Made by a program: the position numbers and the translations under genes. Below, piece by piece: positions 147 to 19,672 of a stretch of DNA of 19,816 nucleotides. This DNA is from Candidatus Heimdallarchaeota archaeon (GTDB lineage: Archaea > Asgardarchaeota > Heimdallarchaeia > Heimdallarchaeales > Heimdallarchaeaceae). Under the pieces are notes generated by a model, which was given only the letters and a program-made list of their open reading frames with translations, was not told the origin of the DNA and searched no databases. The stretch's first letter is position 1, and every line of letters begins with the position of its first letter. The stretch is taken from NCBI GenBank assembly GCA_018238545.1, contig JABCTC010000057.1:1-19816 (forward strand). Direction: 5' to 3'.

Positions 147-2129
147 TTATCTTCTTTTTTTAATCCACAGGATTACCATAACCATTGATAATTGAGTAAA
201 GAGCAGAATAAAACCATAAGAAGCTAAGAACTCAGAAATGACAGGAGTTCCTAATGGAAAAGGATCTACCGAACCTGCTAAGCCTATTATCAGATATTCT
301 CCTCCGGTCCAATCGCTCCACCAGTTGCCTTCACTAGTTGTTATATCATACCAGACATTTCCTGTTCCTTCATCTCTAGCTTGAAAGGCAGTATTGTATA
401 CTAAATGGTTATGGTGTATGATATTGCTATAAGAACCAATACTAAGATACAATCCACAGTGATTTTGAGTTAAGTAATTATAATTTATTAGAGATTGGTT
501 TGATTCAGTAAATCGTATTCCCGTAGAACTAAAGCTGCAGTTGTTCCCATACAAAGTAGAATTAGTACTTCTCCATATTTCTATTCCATCATGTCTATTA
601 TAATAATTAGTGTTGTTAGATATAGAGACCTCACTTGAATAAAAAACTAATATCCCAGTAGAACAGTTTCTACAGATATTGTCTCCAATAATTGTATTCC
701 CATCTGTAAACAAAGCAGTTATTCCTTCCCAATACATTTCCTCGCAGAAGTTACTTAATATTTCACATGAATTTGAATATTGAACATGGATTCCACCATA
801 AAAACTATTATTACAATAATTCTGAGAAATCAATGATGATGACGCATTATCAAGATAGATACCATAGTCATCGTTGTTAATCAAAGAATTGTTGTGAATT
901 GTAGCCGTACCATTTAAGAGGTTTATTAGGGATATTCCTGTTCCACTGCTACTTATAGTGCAGTTTTGTATGATAAAATGTTTTGTAGTCCCTTTAACTG
1001 ATATTCCAATTAGATTATTTGTATCAATTACAAGATCTTCAAGGATATAAGGTTGCATCTCTGTTCCATCACCTTCGAGATTCAAGGTTTCAAATCCAAC
1101 ATCAGAATGAATCTGTATAAAATCAAGATTGTCCAAATTGACAAATGGATACATATCATAGGATCCTGCTGATCCATCAATGTAGTAATATCCTCCAGTC
1201 CAATCACTCCACAGGTTACCTTCAAATGTGATATTGTCATACCAGATGTTTCCTGTTCCCTCATCAAATCCTTGGGATGAAGTTCCCCCATTATCAATAA
1301 TATCATTATGATGTATAGTATTATTTATTGAATCAGATTCTAAGCTAATACCATAAATAGATGTAGCTAGAACCTCATTTGAGATGATACTTATATTAAC
1401 TCCGCTAATAACTCTTATACCATCAAAAATATTACTATAACAATAATTATCTTTGACAATGCTGTTTTCACCAAACCAAGTAGAAATTCCCCAGTTATTA
1501 TAATTGCAAATATTATTTTCAATTAAGAGATTAACTGAAGTTGATGTAGAAATGCCACTAGCAAGGTTACTCTTGCAAGTATTGTTGTAAATTGAGCTGT
1601 AATTTGAATCATGAACATCTATACCATCTTGATGATTGTATTGAACAGTATTATTGAACATTTCACAGCCTGGATAACGATAGATTAGTATTCCTTCCGA
1701 ATCATGGTTAACGATCACATTATTGTAAATTGTAAGTTTACCAGAATAAGTACCAAGGATATAAATCCCCCAATTTTCAGCATCAATGTAACAATTTCTT
1801 ATGATAAAACTAACCGAAGTATCTTGGATATAAATACCAATCGGGTTTGTATTTTCTATTTTATAATTCTCTATAACATAAGGGTCAGATTCAGAACCAT
1901 TTCCAGTAACTATACCATTAAGTGGGTCTAAATCAACATCAGTATCCCCAATAATGGATATAGAACCACGCTCAATATAATCGAAAGAAAAGGCAGTATT
2001 CTCATCAGATACTTGGGCATAAACTCCAGAAAATATCAAATTCAAATTGGAGCTTACGAATAGAGATAATATAACAAACAAACCCAAAGATATTAATTTA
2101 TTATTTTTTCTAAAAAACATCCTCCACAT
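147..2129 (-). CDS. Cell-surface right-handed parallel beta-helix protein (NosD/CASH-like) with two tandem modules, signal peptide and C-terminal membrane anchor
   Basis: Many GI-x-I/L...N..I.NN....N repeats. Each module opens with G.G...[D/Q]PY.[I/L]E and closes with DEGTGN.WYD..T.EGN.WSDWTGG.Y.I.G.AGS.D..P. Basic plus hydrophobic N-terminus; ends PVISEF + hydrophobic stretch + KKRR. Confidence 0.9.
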   Translation of the reverse strand: MWRMFFRKNNKLISLGLFVILSLFVSSNLNLIFSGVYAQVSDENTAFSFDYIERGSISIIGDTDVDLDPLNGIVTGNGSESDPYVIENYKIENTNPIGIYIQDTSVSFIIRNCYIDAENWGIYILGTYSGKLTIYNNVIVNHDSEGILIYRYPGCEMFNNTVQYNHQDGIDVHDSNYSSIYNNTCKSNLASGISTSTSVNLLIENNICNYNNWGISTWFGENSIVKDNYCYSNIFDGIRVISGVNISIISNEVLATSIYGISLESDSINNTIHHNDIIDNGGTSSQGFDEGTGNIWYDNITFEGNLWSDWTGGYYYIDGSAGSYDMYPFVNLDNLDFIQIHSDVGFETLNLEGDGTEMQPYILEDLVIDTNNLIGISVKGTTKHFIIQNCTISSSGTGISLINLLNGTATIHNNSLINNDDYGIYLDNASSSLISQNYCNNSFYGGIHVQYSNSCEILSNFCEEMYWEGITALFTDGNTIIGDNICRNCSTGILVFYSSEVSISNNTNYYNRHDGIEIWRSTNSTLYGNNCSFSSTGIRFTESNQSLINYNYLTQNHCGLYLSIGSYSNIIHHNHLVYNTAFQARDEGTGNVWYDITTSEGNWWSDWTGGEYLIIGLAGSVDPFPLGTPVISEFLASYGFILLFTQLSMVMVILWIKKRR

Positions 2130-2153
2130 ACTATTATATTAAAATAAACTTCA

Positions 2154-2165
2154 ATATAAGCATTT
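2154..2165 (-). promoter_or_regulatory. BRE/TATA-like promoter of the 660-aa gene
   Basis: AAATGCTTATAT ends 25 nt upstream of the ATG at 2129; similar boxes occur before several other genes in the window. Confidence 0.6.
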
Positions 2166-2171
2166 ACATTT

Positions 2172-2285
2172 GCATTATAGGATATTCTTCTAAAGTTAAT
2201 ATGGAATAAGAATCAATAAGCAATTTTGGTTTACTACAGAAGAGATTGTTTTACTGATAAGTAGTTAAGAAGAAATAGTTCATTT
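2172..2285. repeat. Non-coding direct repeat, copy 2
   Basis: About 90% identical to 1-114 with small indels; lies immediately upstream of the TATA box of the 660-aa gene. Confidence 0.93.
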
Positions 2286-3125
2286 GTTTATTACACGCTT
2301 TCTAGTTATCAAAAATAGGGGAATTAGTTTAGACCGAGTATAATTACAATTATTTGCATGTCAGTGTTATTACTGGGTTCTGCAAAAAACTGGAGGGCTC
2401 AATAATTCATTTTGAGGAAAAGGATCGCTAGCACCAGATTCACCTCCAATTGAATAACTTCCTGTTCCTGACCAAGAATCCCAATAGTTACCTTCAAGTG
2501 TTTCAGTATCATACCAAATGTTAGCTGTTCCATGATCACACGCTTGTGATGCAATATCAAAAACACATCCAAGATTATTAGCTACAAAGTTATTATGATG
2601 AATGATATTCTCATCACAATCGGAATCTAAGAATACTCCAAACCACTCATCTTCTTCTAGAAGATTATAAGTAACGACACAGAAATCAGAATTCTCAAGA
2701 AAGATACCTATGCGGTTATCGTTGCAATTGTTGTTTAATATAGTTGCTGTACCATCAGCTACATGATCGATATAGATGCCAGAATAGTTTGTGTTAACAT
2801 AGCAGTTGTAAACAATGAAATATTTCGTTGTATCAGTAATATATATTCCAGATGTGATAGTTGTTGATATCCTATATCCCGTGATTAGATAAGGATCTTT
2901 TTCTGTACCAGATCCAGGAAAATTATACTTTGAAGAACCAAAATCGCTATCACAAAGAATTCTTATTGGTTCATGTGGTATCAAAGAGAAACTATCTTGA
3001 TATTCATGTGAACTACTAGCAGATTTAGTATTCATTATCGGTGATATACTTAATCCTAATAGCATTATTAAAATACAGAAAAATGCTCTGAAAGAAGTAT
3101 TCAATGGGCTTGATAATCTCTTCAT
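2280..3125 (-). CDS. Single-module parallel beta-helix surface protein. ORF as given stops at 2370; the membrane anchor is encoded out of frame down to TGA at 2280
   Basis: Same opening (GSGTEKDPYLI) and closing (DHGTANIWYDTETLEGNYWDSWSG.GSY.IGG..GASDPFP) motifs as the 660-aa paralog. Removing one T from the T6 run at 2384-2389 gives AEPSNNTDMQIIVIILGL, and the original frame then resumes LIPLFLITRKRVINK-stop. Confidence 0.82.
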
Positions 3126-3378
3126 GTTTTTGACCTAGATGCAAATGACTAGTACTTGATTCAATACATTTTGTTTTATTTATTTCTTTCTCTAAATATA
3201 TACCCAGTTTTAATTAGTTTAAAGCGTGGTCTAAATCAAAAAAATATTTTTTGAAATAAAAAAAAAATTCAACATAGTAAAATAAAGTTTAGATGAGTAA
3301 GGCATGGACTTCTTCATCATGAAACTAATAGTATTGACTATTGGAGCAAAATACCTTCTTATGATCTAGGAAAAAATT

Positions 3379-4134
3379 TCATTTATTTTTATTTTTCTCA
3401 TACACAAGTATCCCAACAATATATATTACAGCACTAATAGCGAGAAGTATTCCCAGTAGCATCCAAATATACGAGTCAGTTAAAGAAACTCCAGCAAAAA
3501 TATAGCCTAAACCTTCAGTAGCATAGAAGCTCGGAAATATCCATTTAAATGAATCTGCCCCAATAAATGCTGGAGGAATAAAGGTGGCAAATAATTGTTG
3601 TGGCACGATAAAAATAAAAGCTAATCCACCTGCAGCACCTGCACTTTTTGCAAATTGAGCAGTAATCAGTCCAAACCCTACAGAGCTAAATGTGAGAAGC
3701 ACCAAAAAAACAATCACCAATAAATATCCCGCAGCTGTTGCTAATGGTCTATATCCTACAAGAAGAGCTACACCAAATCCTAGAAACATTTGGATAAGTG
3801 GTTTAATAGTATAGGAAATCAACTGACTAAGGATATATTCAACAGAAGTTAATGGAGTTGTATTGACCCTTTGTTGTATACCTGAAGCACGTTCACCGGC
3901 AACTGATGCTGCGACGTCATATATTGTCATTAAACAGGCATATGCTAGAAATCCTGGAAGCATTATTTCAAATATGGTATATTCAGAACTCCATCCATAG
4001 TTAGAGCCCATAGTTAACCCGAAAATTAGAATTAGCACTGGTACTAACAATACTGTGAACACTAAAACAACTGGGTCTCTTAGTAATCTTAACATCTCCA
4101 TCTTAACAATGGTAAGAACTCTTTTTGTTTTCAT
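3379..4134 (-). CDS. ABC-2 type exporter permease
   Basis: About six hydrophobic segments; E...LLRDP near the N-terminus; ER.SG...R..TTP motif; 2 nt downstream of the ATPase gene. Confidence 0.92.
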   Translation of the reverse strand: MKTKRVLTIVKMEMLRLLRDPVVLVFTVLLVPVLILIFGLTMGSNYGWSSEYTIFEIMLPGFLAYACLMTIYDVAASVAGERASGIQQRVNTTPLTSVEYILSQLISYTIKPLIQMFLGFGVALLVGYRPLATAAGYLLVIVFLVLLTFSSVGFGLITAQFAKSAGAAGGLAFIFIVPQQLFATFIPPAFIGADSFKWIFPSFYATEGLGYIFAGVSLTDSYIWMLLGILLAISAVIYIVGILVYEKNKNK

Positions 4135-4136
4135 AA

Positions 4137-4952
4137 TTAAATCCCCTCCACAATTCTTCTACCAGTAATCTTCATAAAAACCTCTTCCAAATTTGTAACT
4201 TCATACTCTTCAATTAATTTTTTTGGAGGTCCAATTGCGATTACTTTTCCATAATCAATGATTGCTACTCTATCACAAAGCGCTTCTGCTTCTTCGATAT
4301 AATGGGTGGTTAAAATAACAGTTCTATTTTGTCTTCTTATGGAACCAAGAAACTCCCAAACCTTTCGACGAGCTCGAGGATCCATTCCGACTGTTGGCTC
4401 ATCTAGAAATAGTATGTCGGGCTCGTTGATCAAAGCAATGATGAGACTTAGTTGTCTTAACATACCTCCACTATATCTTTTTGTTTTCCGTTTCCGGTCA
4501 TCATATAATCCTAACAATTTTAACAGTTCTTCTGCCCGTTCCAATATCTCTTTTTTCGACATTAAGTGTAAATTGCCGAAAAACTGAATGTTCTCAATGC
4601 CAGTAAGGAATGTATATACGGACGGTTCTTGTGGGCACACACTTATTATTTCTTTAATCTCCTTAAGATCTGTTCTTACATTATATCCCCCAACAACTGC
4701 TGTGCCTTCAGTTGGTGAAACTGCACCCGTTAGAATGTTAATAGTGGTTGTTTTGCCAGCGCCATTTGATCCTAGAAGACCGAAAAATTCTCCGTGTTCA
4801 ACATGAAATGTGACACCATCAACAGCCTTGACGCTTTCAATTTTTCTCTTACCCTTGAAGTGTTTCTTAAGATTCTTTACTTCAATGGAAATAAAGCTAT
4901 CAGGTGCATTTATTTTGATATCTGAATTTTTATTTTCTTTAGTTGATAACAT
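4137..4952 (-). CDS. ABC exporter ATP-binding subunit (DrrA/NodI-like)
   Basis: Walker A GSNGAGKTT, Q-loop CPQ, signature YSGGM, Walker B LFLDEP, H-loop TTHY. Start moved from GTG 4961 to ATG 4952 because AGGTG precedes it at RBS distance. Confidence 0.95.
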   Translation of the reverse strand: MLSTKENKNSDIKINAPDSFISIEVKNLKKHFKGKRKIESVKAVDGVTFHVEHGEFFGLLGSNGAGKTTTINILTGAVSPTEGTAVVGGYNVRTDLKEIKEIISVCPQEPSVYTFLTGIENIQFFGNLHLMSKKEILERAEELLKLLGLYDDRKRKTKRYSGGMLRQLSLIIALINEPDILFLDEPTVGMDPRARRKVWEFLGSIRRQNRTVILTTHYIEEAEALCDRVAIIDYGKVIAIGPPKKLIEEYEVTNLEEVFMKITGRRIVEGI

Positions 4953-5088
4953 TATGGGCACCTAGTTAAGTATAGTTCTTTTTATTCATTTTTAAATTCT
5001 TAGTGAATAATTATGTTCAATTTAAAAAATACTATTAATATTTAGAGATTAAATTTGTAAAAAGTAAAGTGATATGATTTTATCAGAT

Positions 5089-7844: not shown

Positions 7845-8267
7845 TTAAAAAGATAAATGGCATTCTTCCCTGATAGTGCAAGATGGGCATTTTATCCTTA
7901 CTATATGAAGATAATTTCCAACCAAAGAAGCAATAAAGACAACTAAAGCTATTATTGCTAAATAAGAGAAATTTGTAAAGAATGAAATGATAATTAGTAC
8001 GATACGTAATAACCATATTAATAACATCAGCCACACCCAGTTTTTTTGACCTACATGCATATGTAAGAGCGTTTTACTCCATTTTTCTATGGATTGTAGT
8101 TTCTCAGTAGTCTTCAGTTGCTTTTTATCTATTGCAGTATCTTTAACTTTGAAATAACAGTATTTACAAATCGTTAATGGCATTATCAAAAAGTAATACA
8201 ATAGAGAATATACTAAATACCCCAAGGCAGCCCATAAATTGAAATAGTATATTCCCCAGGTTCCAGC
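7845..8267 (-). pseudogene. 5-prime-truncated membrane protein with two Cys motifs (CKYC; CPSC-x5-C)
   Basis: The frame is open from 8267 (AGTWGIYYFNLWAALGYLVY...) but is blocked by TAG at 8268-8270, with no convincing start or RBS. The TTG at 8225 lies inside a hydrophobic helix. Confidence 0.65.
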
Positions 8268-8454
8268 CTACTCCTGTGGGATTTGTCGGATCAGAAACAT
8301 CGTCTATCTCAATAGCAGCATAGAGACCGCTAATTACATACGCGTATGAACCACTGATTGCAACTGATTTCACAGAAGGATAGTTCAAAGATTTATTGAT
8401 ATACCTCCCTACAAATTCTAAGTTACTAGGATCACTGCAATCAAAAATTCTCAT
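8265..8454 (-). pseudogene. Internal fragment of an LVIVD-repeat (beta-propeller) surface protein, about 1.5 repeats
   Basis: RIFDCSDPSNLEFVGRY and SVAISGSYAYV...IEIDDVSDPTNPTGVG match the LVIVD repeat pattern. The remainder of ORF 8164..8454 is out-of-frame read-through of the neighbouring fragment. Confidence 0.8.
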
Positions 8455-15291: not shown

Positions 15292-15861
15292 TTAGATATC
15301 TACATTCTCACTTTGTTTCAGCAGATTATCCAATTCCTTCTTGACTCCTTCTCTTTCTGATAGCTCTGTAAGCAATTCATAGTTTAATTCGTTCTTCAAT
15401 CGCAGAATTATACTATATGCATCATCTATATCTTGATCACTCCCATAGAGGATTTTTGCAATAATTATCTCTTCAGGAATTTGGATAAATGTTTCTTCAT
15501 CAAAAATTGTTAATATAATCTTGTTTTGAAGAGCTTCTTCCTCCAGCTTCCTTGTTGGTGTTTTGATATCTAATCTTAAAATTGTCTCATTGTCGAAAAC
15601 TGAACAATGTGAACCCTCCAAGAAAGCTTCCATAATTTCATTCTCTCCAACAATCAATGACTCATTCCTCAAATTCTCTTCAAGTTTTGCAATTTTTTTC
15701 ATATTATGCTCAATAATAACATCTATATCCATTGTAGAACGAGGTCTTCCATAAATTGAAACAATCACTCCACCAATCAAAACATAATCTATTTCAGATT
15801 TATTGAGCGCACGTATACACAACGTGATGAAACGTTGAAAGGGATTACCTGAAACTTCCAT
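15292..15861 (-). CDS. Pol-beta superfamily nucleotidyltransferase (DUF6036/AbiEii-like)
   Basis: YVLIGG....YG.PRSTMDID signature, third Asp in RLDI, C-terminal PEEIII.K...G...D..D. Confidence 0.85.
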   Translation of the reverse strand: MEVSGNPFQRFITLCIRALNKSEIDYVLIGGVIVSIYGRPRSTMDIDVIIEHNMKKIAKLEENLRNESLIVGENEIMEAFLEGSHCSVFDNETILRLDIKTPTRKLEEEALQNKIILTIFDEETFIQIPEEIIIAKILYGSDQDIDDAYSIILRLKNELNYELLTELSEREGVKKELDNLLKQSENVDI

Positions 15862-16056
15862 CTACGATTTCCTCCTACCATTTAGCAAATCAACTATTTT
15901 GCGTAGTTTTGCACTATCTTCTCCTTTTTGTAGTTTTAGAAGAGCTGTTACCAAATCACACATTGCTTTCAAGGTATCTTCCCCATCTAACCCTAATTCG
16001 TGTATTCTGGAAATCTCTCGTTCAATGGAAGCCTTACGTTTAATCACTAAAGTCAT
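15862..16056 (-). CDS. 64-aa helical protein, translationally coupled to the nucleotidyltransferase (putative partner/antitoxin)
   Basis: Its TAG directly abuts the next ATG (TAGATG); charged, helix-like sequence. Confidence 0.7.
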   Translation of the reverse strand: MTLVIKRKASIEREISRIHELGLDGEDTLKAMCDLVTALLKLQKGEDSAKLRKIVDLLNGRRKS

Positions 16057-17578: not shown

Positions 17579-19492
17579 TTAGTTCTTTTGTTTTTTCCTT
17601 ATGATTATCAAAAGAATAACAGATAAACAACTTGGCAAGAATAATGATATTGATTCTTCTAGTCTTGCATAACCTGCTGCTTCCATCCATTTCCAAGCCA
17701 AATCTAGATCACGATGATATTTTATTGGAAAAGAATCAAATCTCCAAGTATGGAGAGTAAACATAGGTTCATGAATCATAAGATACTCACCATTATGAAT
17801 AACTTGATTTATTTCACCTCTATCAATAACATAACAAATCGCCTTTCTAATTGCGCAAGCTTTTGTGTAATCTCCTAGTTCAGTGCCATTTATCCATTCT
17901 AGATTGCTAGAGCCACCAATATTTGGTCTATGCATATTGAATGCTAAGAGGTTGAATCCATAGCTTAGTATGCATTGAACTTCAAATCTTGTATCTGCTT
18001 GCATAGTTTTTCTTTCAGCTGGGAAGGGAGTTAAATCACACAAATCAAGTCTACCAGCTTTGAATTCTGCTAGTTCTGCCGAGCTATCAGGTATAATATG
18101 AACATTGATGGTTTCGAGGTCTAGGTCTTGTTCAGTTCCGTCTATAACACCAAAATTCATCCAGTAAGGACTAGCTTGGAGAACAGTAACGGAGTCCTTG
18201 ATATAGTAATCTAGCTGGTATTTACCACATCCAAATGCTGAAGTGCTAGCAGTTCCCCATGAATCAGAATCTTGAATTCCTTCATAGAAGCCAGTACATT
18301 TAACTCCACCAGAAGTGTATGAAATAGTAGAATCACTTGAATTCAAGAAGAACTCAGGAAGAACAAACTGGTGGAGACTTGACCAAAAGTCTACATATGG
18401 TTCAATTTCAGGTGTTTCAGGGTTAGCATCTATCTCAATGTGGAAAGCTAGTGGATCTACTGGGTCAACATAAACATTTGAAATCCAGTTGTGATATGAT
18501 GGATTTTCACTGACGATTGGATTTGCCCAAGCAAGGTAAGTAAAAACTGCATCTTTTGCTGTGACTAGTTGATTTGTACCAGTACTAACTTCCCCATTCT
18601 TCAAACCATTCATTAATGGAGTTGTTGCAACTTCAAGTGATTCAGAACTGGCATTTCTTCCGGTTACATTGTATGAAGGATTCCAATATACACCATCTCT
18701 CATAGTAAATTTGTAGTGGAATTCGTCAATTTGTTCCCAATCTACAACTAATGAAGTTTTGAGTGGGGCTAAATCAGGACTCCAACCAACAATCGGTTCA
18801 GCTATTAAGCTGTAAATAAATAAACTAGCTATATCGTCTGTTTTCAACAGGTTCAGATCTCGCCAATTATCATCAGCCACATTGAATTCATTTAATGATT
18901 CTTGACCTTCATGTAGACCATCATACTCCATATATGGCAAAGAATCAGCCAATCCCCATCTTAAATCAAATCCCAATGTATTATCCCACGTGGCAACATA
19001 TTGTCTAGGGCTGAAAAGGGGTAATAGAGGTAGAATTTTATCCATCAATAAAATTTCCCAATCATAATATGTTTGTTGTCTTTCTGCTAAGTCAATCATA
19101 GAGATAGCTTCATTTTGCATTGTTTCACTTTCATTCTGATATGGAATACTTCTATCCAAACGAAATAGATTGAACATACCTTCTTCAGTATAATAATCTC
19201 TCATATCGTGAGTTTTAAGATCTGAAAAAGCTGATAAGGTCATATCGAAATCATCCATCAAATAGGGATCAAACCTATAAAACCCACCTGAATCTAATTT
19301 TACTTCAAGGTCGATGTTAATTTCTTGAAGATATTGTGCTACATATAACCCATAATCTGGATAATTTTCTCCTTCGCCAGCTCTCAATACTAAAGTGAAA
19401 AAAGGTTCAACAGTTTCTTCGCCCTTTACAGTTACAATACTAAAAGAGACAATTAGATAGAAAATTACAGAGATAGCTATTTCTCTTCTCAT
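17579..19492 (-). CDS. Family 5 (OppA/DppA-like) ABC solute-binding protein, circularly permuted, with C-terminal membrane anchor
   Basis: Motifs FTMRDGVYW, TAKDAVFT, GCGKYQL, ASPYW, FKAGRLD, LAFN, IRKAI.Y.IDR, A...MEAAGY, ERQQTY...LPLLPL. ATG 19492 follows AGGTGA and starts a signal peptide, so it is preferred over GTG 19564. Ends with a hydrophobic stretch + RKKQKN. Confidence 0.9.
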   Translation of the reverse strand: MRREIAISVIFYLIVSFSIVTVKGEETVEPFFTLVLRAGEGENYPDYGLYVAQYLQEINIDLEVKLDSGGFYRFDPYLMDDFDMTLSAFSDLKTHDMRDYYTEEGMFNLFRLDRSIPYQNESETMQNEAISMIDLAERQQTYYDWEILLMDKILPLLPLFSPRQYVATWDNTLGFDLRWGLADSLPYMEYDGLHEGQESLNEFNVADDNWRDLNLLKTDDIASLFIYSLIAEPIVGWSPDLAPLKTSLVVDWEQIDEFHYKFTMRDGVYWNPSYNVTGRNASSESLEVATTPLMNGLKNGEVSTGTNQLVTAKDAVFTYLAWANPIVSENPSYHNWISNVYVDPVDPLAFHIEIDANPETPEIEPYVDFWSSLHQFVLPEFFLNSSDSTISYTSGGVKCTGFYEGIQDSDSWGTASTSAFGCGKYQLDYYIKDSVTVLQASPYWMNFGVIDGTEQDLDLETINVHIIPDSSAELAEFKAGRLDLCDLTPFPAERKTMQADTRFEVQCILSYGFNLLAFNMHRPNIGGSSNLEWINGTELGDYTKACAIRKAICYVIDRGEINQVIHNGEYLMIHEPMFTLHTWRFDSFPIKYHRDLDLAWKWMEAAGYARLEESISLFLPSCLSVILLIIIRKKQKN

Positions 19493-19672
19493 TAGTTCAC
19501 CTAGGGATTTGTTACGAAATATTATGCTGAAACACCTATAAACTTTGCTTACAATAGAAATCACTTGACAATCATGAACAAACTGATTCAGGATAATAAG
19601 ATATTCCTACAAAACTAGAACATCTAGCCAATTACTTTTTAAACATAGAAAAACATACCTTATTTTGAATTT

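Follow-up and report, generated by a model that had tools for sequence, protein, structure and literature searches.

Family-5 solute-binding proteins are among the best-studied receptors of bacteria and archaea and are regarded as having a fixed chain topology: the canonical path runs from lobe 1 through an extra domain back into lobe 1, crosses the hinge into lobe 2 and recrosses it to finish at the end of lobe 1. For natural circular permutation of a binding protein we found one documented precedent, the glucose-binding protein TpMglB-2 (Tp0684) of Treponema pallidum, for which the class 'Type Ic / Cluster Bc' was proposed; members of its subfamily are mostly tethered, and its authors proposed a link between topology and tethering (PMC4990184). 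In Pseudomonas aeruginosa, several family-5 receptors, DppA1–A5, share one translocator (PMC4206461). Here we analysed a 19,816-nucleotide stretch of DNA (the window) from a Candidatus Heimdallarchaeota archaeon, which is the entire contig JABCTC010000057.1 (C61) of its source genome (GCA_018238545.1, here G000; 3.63 Mb in 128 contigs), and found that it encodes a membrane-anchored family-5 solute-binding protein (SBP) whose chain order is circularly permuted. Our literature search, the coverage of which was incomplete, returned no report of a permuted cluster C or family-5 protein.

The first-pass annotation, made from the sequence, had read three conserved family-5 motif blocks in this gene in the order C–A–B instead of A–B–C, and we located the gene and its blocks as it described. 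Residues are numbered 1–637 from the ATG at 19492, which we took as the start because the N-termini of 50 aligned homologs begin there; an upstream GTG at 19564 opens a longer open reading frame (ORF; 17579..19564, minus strand) that adds 24 amino acids. In this numbering, block C (FFTLVL...LPLLPL) spans residues 31–158 and block A (DLN...TAKDAVFT) residues 212–318, while block B terminates at AWKWMEAAGY (residues 599–608), directly ahead of a transmembrane (TM) anchor and basic tail.

Profile searches were consistent with this order. The window protein matched Pfam SBP_bac_5 (PF00496) with 88.4 bits against a cut-off of 32.4, only over profile positions 9–282 of 368 and on its C-terminal part. 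Residues 1–246 scanned alone against Pfam gave no match, and NCBIfam gave only weak, sub-threshold matches to Opp4A and NikA. Of the two SBP_bac_5 hits in swapped order that the first-pass annotation had anticipated, the window protein gives the C-terminal match. In four paralogs of the same genome, profile positions 287–366 also match, upstream in the same ORF (E 1e-6 to 4e-4). This genome holds at least 11 family-5 proteins whose Pfam match stops near profile position 280. In all 11 of these non-canonical paralogs, profile positions 2–280 lie in the C-terminal half of the protein and the match ends ~30 residues before the stop codon, with the anchor alone after it. The genome's one canonical family-5 paralog, C88, matches profile positions 1–366 in the order A–B–C and is encoded in a normal operon.

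We next searched an alignment-derived profile of 50 homologs (A1) against all PDB sequences. In Bacillus subtilis AppA, profile positions 33–180 aligned with residues 358–503 (independent E-value, i-E, 6.8e-9), while positions 535–615 aligned with residues 265–346 (i-E 7.5e-4); in Helicobacter pylori DppA, positions 47–181 aligned with residues 384–518 (i-E 1.1e-4) and positions 537–622 with residues 294–378 (i-E 4.8e-6). Three further segments were not significant, namely AppA 96–109 (profile 313–326, i-E 2.2e+03), AppA 210–272 (profile 460–524, i-E 1.4e+02) and H. pylori DppA 43–103 (profile 216–275, i-E 29). The same swap was seen against the genome's own canonical C88, with profile positions 215–276, 553–614 and 33–93 falling on residues 45–106, 293–354 and 371–436, respectively. 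Using hhalign, A1 match columns 427–621 (window residues 416–610) aligned with residues 204–370 of the Escherichia coli DppA precursor, and the 'AAGY' that ends the family domain fell on precursor residues 365–370. The N-terminal block against the single E. coli DppA sequence gave E 0.7, which is not significant, in the register expected. Because Pfam and single-sequence hhalign gave nothing significant for this block, its mapping relies on the matches of the family profile to AppA, H. pylori DppA and C88, together with a fragment structure model.

The structure models place the break at the same point. The AlphaFold2 (AF2) model of the whole protein has a mean predicted local distance difference test (pLDDT) score of 87 and a predicted template modelling (pTM) score of 0.82, and its structural matches, retrieved with Foldseek and VIA-align, were all cluster C binding proteins, including MoaA, AppA and DppA at VIA Z scores of 21–22 over 315–326 aligned residues. 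Sequential alignment always paired model residues 187–612 with target residues 1 to ~344 (for DppA, residues 1–344, Z 21, 324 residues aligned). The first-pass annotation had named two findings that would speak against permutation, a colinear end-to-end alignment to canonical family-5 proteins and an unrelated fold for the N-terminal ~150 residues. The former is absent, as the alignment covers only residues 187–612 against DppA 1–344, and among the top 1000 Foldseek matches no solved structure was colinear with the protein over its full length. Nor is the N-terminal region an unrelated domain: in a second AF2 model, restricted to residues 1–246 (pLDDT 70), each of the 50 listed matches paired the fragment 24–155 with the C-terminal third of a cluster C protein (Z 6–7.3, ~123 residues), for example with DppA 337–471 and AppA 341–482. 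The alignments of the two models abut at one canonical position, so that the fold is whole but its chain circularly permuted.

The breakpoint is identical across Pfam, the family profile against PDB sequences, hhalign and the two AF2 models with VIA-align, and lies after the 'eaGy' helix, at DppA mature residues ~342–344. Only the 25 residues of the TM anchor follow the 'AAGY' helix, which excludes a partial duplication. Together, these results confirm that the chain order is truly permuted, C–A–B and not A–B–C, with a swap far beyond chance, and both sequence profiles and structure models support the proposal that the gene was cut after the 'eaG' helix and its old termini joined.

To assign the breakpoint to a lobe, we take mature residues 261–478 of the DppA structure to be domain III. 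Residues 27–186 are then most of lobe 2 plus the strands returning to lobe 1, and residues 216–612 comprise lobe 1 and its extra domain, followed by the hinge and the initial portion of lobe 2, which closes with the 'AAGY' helix. The mature chain would begin in the middle of lobe 2, immediately beyond the end of the canonical 'eaGy' helix, run through the old C-terminal strands of lobe 1 and pass over a junction of ~30 residues into the old N-terminus. It would next build lobe 1 with the extra domain, recross the hinge and finish in lobe 2, with the TM anchor hanging from the terminal 'AAGY' helix. Lobe 1 should consequently form one continuous segment and lobe 2 be assembled from both chain ends, placing both termini, and hence the signal peptide and the tether, on lobe 2 instead of lobe 1. 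Canonical C88 also carries a C-terminal TM anchor, placed after the old C-terminus, so the permutation moves the tether.

The features of the protein are collected in Table 1. In the model, the signal-peptide stretch is a single helix of low pLDDT. The anchor region is made up of a short linker, a hydrophobic helix and an RKKQKN tail; both the N-terminal hydrophobic signal and the C-terminal TM helix with its basic tail are kept in the 50 homologs. The junction is conserved within the A1-type subfamily and is ~25 residues shorter in a second subfamily of ~600-residue proteins.

Table 1 Features of the permuted binding protein and neighbouring genes in the window (all coordinates are positions in the window).
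Feature	Residues	Coordinates	Strand	Basis or remark
Coding sequence of the circularly permuted family-5 SBP, 637 amino acids	1–637	17579..19492	−	>260 full-length homologs, 45–90% identity
Predicted N-terminal signal peptide, MRRE plus 18-residue hydrophobic stretch	1–24	19421..19492	−	Sequence; kept in family alignment
Former C-terminal third of the canonical fold	27–186	18935..19414	−	Profile and fragment-model matches
Junction joining old C-terminus to old N-terminus	187–215	18848..18934	−	Lies between the two mapped blocks
Former N-terminal two-thirds of the canonical fold	216–612	17657..18847	−	Pfam profile 9–282; structure match; hhalign
C-terminal membrane anchor, plus stop codon	613–637	17579..17656	−	Sequence; family alignment
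NosDFY-like module		147–4961	−	
Two short overlapping ORFs, one with an LVIVD repeat		7845–8454	−	Resembles a frameshifted or degraded gene
DUF6036 nucleotidyltransferase-like gene (189 amino acids), abutted upstream by a 64-amino-acid ORF		15292–16056	−	

Apart from chain order, the protein resembles the canonical cluster C proteins (DppA, 1DPP; AppA, 1XOC; NikA/NikZ; Agrobacterium tumefaciens MoaA/AccA) in its above-cut-off SBP_bac_5 match, in its three-domain bilobed fold (Z 21–22 over ~320 residues) and in the motifs F.LR..V.W, TA.D..F, AVRKAI.YAIDR and AAGY, with FGCGKY replacing GTGPY. It also shares secretion and tethering with other archaeal binding proteins, and a relative lies in an OppBCDF-like operon. 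In contrast to them, its blocks run C–A–B and its termini and anchor should sit on lobe 2, the mature protein is ~80 residues longer through insertions, its copies are almost always unlinked to permeases and an Asp of the DppA D436 type is not conserved. With TpMglB-2 it shares a natural permutation of an ABC (ATP-binding cassette)-type binding protein that extends through a subfamily, here across an Asgard family. TpMglB-2 is, however, a cluster B (MglB-like) protein of bacterial hosts, without sequence relationship to the Asgard family, the matches of which were all to cluster C, and in it N-lobe strands have moved to the C-terminus, creating a fourth hinge crossing; in the Asgard proteins the lobe crossings should stay at two.

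The permuted form is not peculiar to this contig. The named ones among the full-length homologs all come from Heimdallarchaeota metagenome-assembled genomes (MAGs). The source genome itself carries 11–13 permuted copies, which share a common breakpoint and fall into three subfamilies: A1-type (contigs C4, C61, C57 and, with two copies, C73), C63-type (C63) and the ~600-residue subfamily with the shorter junction (C109, C21, C94, C45 and C100). All 30 genomes of the same GTDB family contain several colinear full-length copies, up to 18–20 per genome and sometimes in tandem arrays. Across 300 Asgard genomes, the A1-type family was present in every genome of two archaeal families (f1, 27/27; f6, 11/11), with no match in families such as f11 (76 genomes) and f14 (68 genomes). 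A junction-spanning N-terminal profile of 309 positions, scored against 1.84 billion representatives, retrieved 98 clusters at E ≤ 1e-30, a number that rose to 455 at E ≤ 1e-10, and each of the best 150 (150/150) matched at its own N-terminus, that is, in permuted order. The family of permuted proteins is large: clustered at 50% identity, it numbers at least 150 groups and probably ~450. In 20 sampled clusters, all named members were Asgard (Heimdallarchaeota, 'Asgard group' and one Thorarchaeota label), and as far as sampled the family is restricted to Asgard archaea, mostly Heimdallarchaeia. We also collected 77 related loci from species-representative genomes, all of them Heimdallarchaeota-type or otherwise unclassified archaeal MAGs, including Ca. 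Heimdallarchaeum aukensis and Ca. H. endolithica, whose chromosomes are complete.

Some copies are degraded: one in the source genome (G000 C100:10804-12591) is interrupted by an in-frame TGA, and one in Ca. H. endolithica (G006:C1:1681412-1683353) is split by TAA, TGA and TAG stops. A search of the ESM Atlas returned SBP_bac_5 clusters only, the third-ranked of which is a 732-residue cluster, mostly from Thermoplasmatota (0.98 by language-model features), so the permuted form may yet extend beyond Asgard archaea.

Relatives differ mainly in what joins the 'AAGY' helix to the membrane: Thr/Pro-rich linkers or an extra domain of ~110 amino acids are inserted between helix and anchor, and some relatives have long stalks of TSP3 Ca-binding repeats. 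One protein, P0166 (1772 amino acids), holds two complete permuted modules in tandem. Giant relatives (P0166, P0164, P0180, P0174 and P0211) contain one or two complete permuted modules, with a stalk of bacterial TSP3 repeats and a Ca-binding domain of binary-toxin-B type. Tandem C–A–B modules contain a canonical A–B–C across the module boundary, so duplication could interconvert the two topologies. A search for relatives longer than 1115 amino acids as tandem-duplication intermediates found none at that setting, which is weak evidence, and the tandem TSP3 proteins are not clear intermediates because their modules are already permuted. In many A1 homologs the C-terminus is a tripartite signal in which a Thr/Pro-rich linker leads through P-[FL]-P into a Gly/Ala-rich TM helix and then RKRK, resembling PGF-CTERM-type sorting signals; the subclade of the window gene instead has FLPSCLS, with a conserved Cys. 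The source genome also encodes an exosortase/archaeosortase-family protein (G000 C43:12012-12752, 41 bits combined).

We then considered the genomic context of the permuted proteins for indications of function. As noted in the first-pass annotation, no Opp/Dpp permease or ATPase is encoded in the window, where the only ABC system is of ABC-2 type and lies 13 kb away. None of the permuted paralogs of the source genome is on a contig with a BPD_transp_1 gene, and an all-against-all comparison of the neighbours of 12 copies in this genome revealed no recurrent partner or signalling gene. The only one of the 77 loci with Opp-type permeases within 6 kb is L073, from a congeneric genome (G026:C21), in which a permuted copy is embedded in a same-strand OppBCDF-like operon in the order 492-amino-acid protein, ABC ATPase, OppB-like permease, OppC-like permease, 259-amino-acid protein, permuted SBP and the start of an OppD-like ATPase. 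The embedded SBP is full-length, and its best match in the source genome is the window gene (45% identity; 45–47% over both operon copies), the second operon copy being in another congeneric genome (G009:C87), which has the same arrangement up to the contig end. The OppB- and OppC-like permeases of L073 are 81–82% identical to those of an operon in the source genome (G000 C119:39176-44786), which is organized in the same way except that it lacks the binding-protein gene. Two other Opp-type operons of the source genome, on C8 and C40, likewise have no binding-protein gene. Among the 300 Asgard genomes, OppB of the C119 type was found only in f1 (26/27) and f6 (7/11), a distribution that mirrors the permuted family, in the same two archaeal families.

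On the basis of the operon-embedded copies, the SBP-less operons of the source genome and the matching permease distribution, we favour an Opp-type importer served in trans. We thus consider it reasonably likely that the window protein is a secreted, membrane-tethered, permuted cluster C protein acting as a Venus-flytrap receptor that feeds an OppBCDF-like ABC importer encoded elsewhere. Such a protein would deliver its solute in trans, most likely to the importer type encoded by the C119 operon. This arrangement would resemble that of P. aeruginosa DppA1–A5, paralogous family-5 receptors proposed to feed one OppBCDF/DppBCDF-type translocator elsewhere in the genome, although those receptors are canonical in chain order and their families far smaller. 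The first-pass annotation had suggested that the altered tether might let the protein act as a stand-alone receptor; this idea is weakened by the presence of a permuted copy in an Opp-type operon of two genomes and by the co-occurrence of the permease type with the family. The proteins described here represent a new topological variant of family-5 proteins that is probably still linked to transport.

DppA clamps its peptide through R383, which binds the carboxylate, and D436, which binds the amino group (PMC12136057). In a low-confidence alignment, the family motif 'VRPDY' may correspond to R383, and the position of D436 is Gly in most members. The clamp Asp is apparently absent from most of the family, and classical peptide binding is therefore not assured.

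Several observations weigh against a permuted receptor feeding an importer in trans. No Opp-type permease was found within 6 kb at 76 of the 77 related loci (778 kb in total), and permuted copies in two closed genomes and a near-closed one lie 15 kb or more from the nearest permease. The co-distribution of permease and SBP rests on two lineages, the related genomes of which are not independent. In the same low-confidence alignment, the Arg of 'VRPDY', present in most of the family, is replaced by Y44 in the window protein. Finally, the N-terminal fragment model, which carries part of the permutation argument, is mediocre (pLDDT 70, Z just 6–7).

The alternative that survives best, which we nevertheless regard as unlikely, is that the permuted protein no longer takes part in transport: as a stalked surface receptor, sensor or adhesin, it would bind a ligand or partner without passing it to an ABC importer. 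Nearly all copies are orphans without conserved neighbours, the family has undergone massive expansion (11–13 copies per genome), relatives carry the ~110-amino-acid stalk domain, Thr/Pro-rich linkers, TSP3 stalks and tandem modules, and the peptide-clamping Asp appears to be absent, all of which would suit such a role. However, a departure from transport does not readily explain why two genomes carry a permuted copy within an Opp-type operon, why the source genome has SBP-less Opp-type operons or why the phyletic pattern matches that of the permease. Moreover, orphan or multiple binding proteins sharing one translocator are common in bacteria, and no signalling gene recurs beside the copies. 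A more speculative version holds that the permutation founded a set of Asgard-specific stalked surface receptors, mostly uncoupled from transporters, with the operon copies as an ancestral remnant. In this version the tether and any stalk or tandem module would be joined at lobe 2, and the receptors would serve sensing or the capture of partner-derived molecules or surfaces.

Recruitment of the fold to catalysis, or to a purely structural part in the cell envelope, with loss of solute binding, appears improbable. Solute-binding folds have turned into enzymes elsewhere (PMC7683729), and high copy numbers with surface anchors on all copies would be compatible with such a fate. Against it, neither Pfam nor NCBIfam scans returned a catalytic motif or an enzyme family, the top structural matches are without exception ligand-binding transport proteins and a permuted copy is embedded in a transporter operon. 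Least credible is the absence of any real permutation, with the N-terminal 190 residues an unrelated domain or the arrangement an assembly or gene-calling artefact: the silence of Pfam on the N-terminal 246 residues and the insignificant hhalign result (E 0.7) would allow it, but it is refuted by the N-block profile matches to the C-terminal third of AppA and DppA (6.8e-9 and 1e-4), by the fragment model mapping to that third in all 50 top matches, by the 150/150 clusters matching at their own N-terminus and by the recurrence of the same architecture in >260 homologs, at 77 loci and in two closed chromosomes.

Other genes of the window and of the Opp-type operons deserve brief mention. The NosDFY-like module comprises a 660-amino-acid NosD/right-handed beta-helix protein, a 251-amino-acid NosD-like protein, an ABC-2 membrane protein and an ABC ATPase; a NosD/beta-helix gene like that of the window is also found upstream of the C8 Opp-type operon. 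In that operon, an Opp-type permease (BPD_transp_1 plus BPD_transp_1_N; G000 C8:43138-45744, L019:4138-6744) is fused to an N-terminal LVIVD beta-propeller of ~500 amino acids, which may be a built-in receptor domain, and is accompanied by a second permease and two ATPases, with no binding-protein gene. The DUF6036 gene and the adjoining 64-amino-acid ORF could be a toxin–antitoxin-like pair, and a DUF308 membrane protein is all that is encoded in the 1.5 kb between them and the binding-protein gene.

These findings have consequences for how family-5 proteins are annotated and used. The permutation explains truncated 'SBP_bac_5 Middle' annotations that leave 250 N-terminal residues unexplained. 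A natural, family-wide permutation implies that the fold can accept new termini behind the 'eaGy' helix, a site that evolution has used to hang anchors, stalks and second modules and that is available to biosensor design as a natural point for splits or insertions. The family also provides a testable case for the effect of tether position on docking to an ABC translocator. In Heimdallarchaeaceae the permuted form is the dominant form of family-5 proteins. This suggests that the archaeal group closest to eukaryotes has an expanded, lineage-specific repertoire for nutrient capture.

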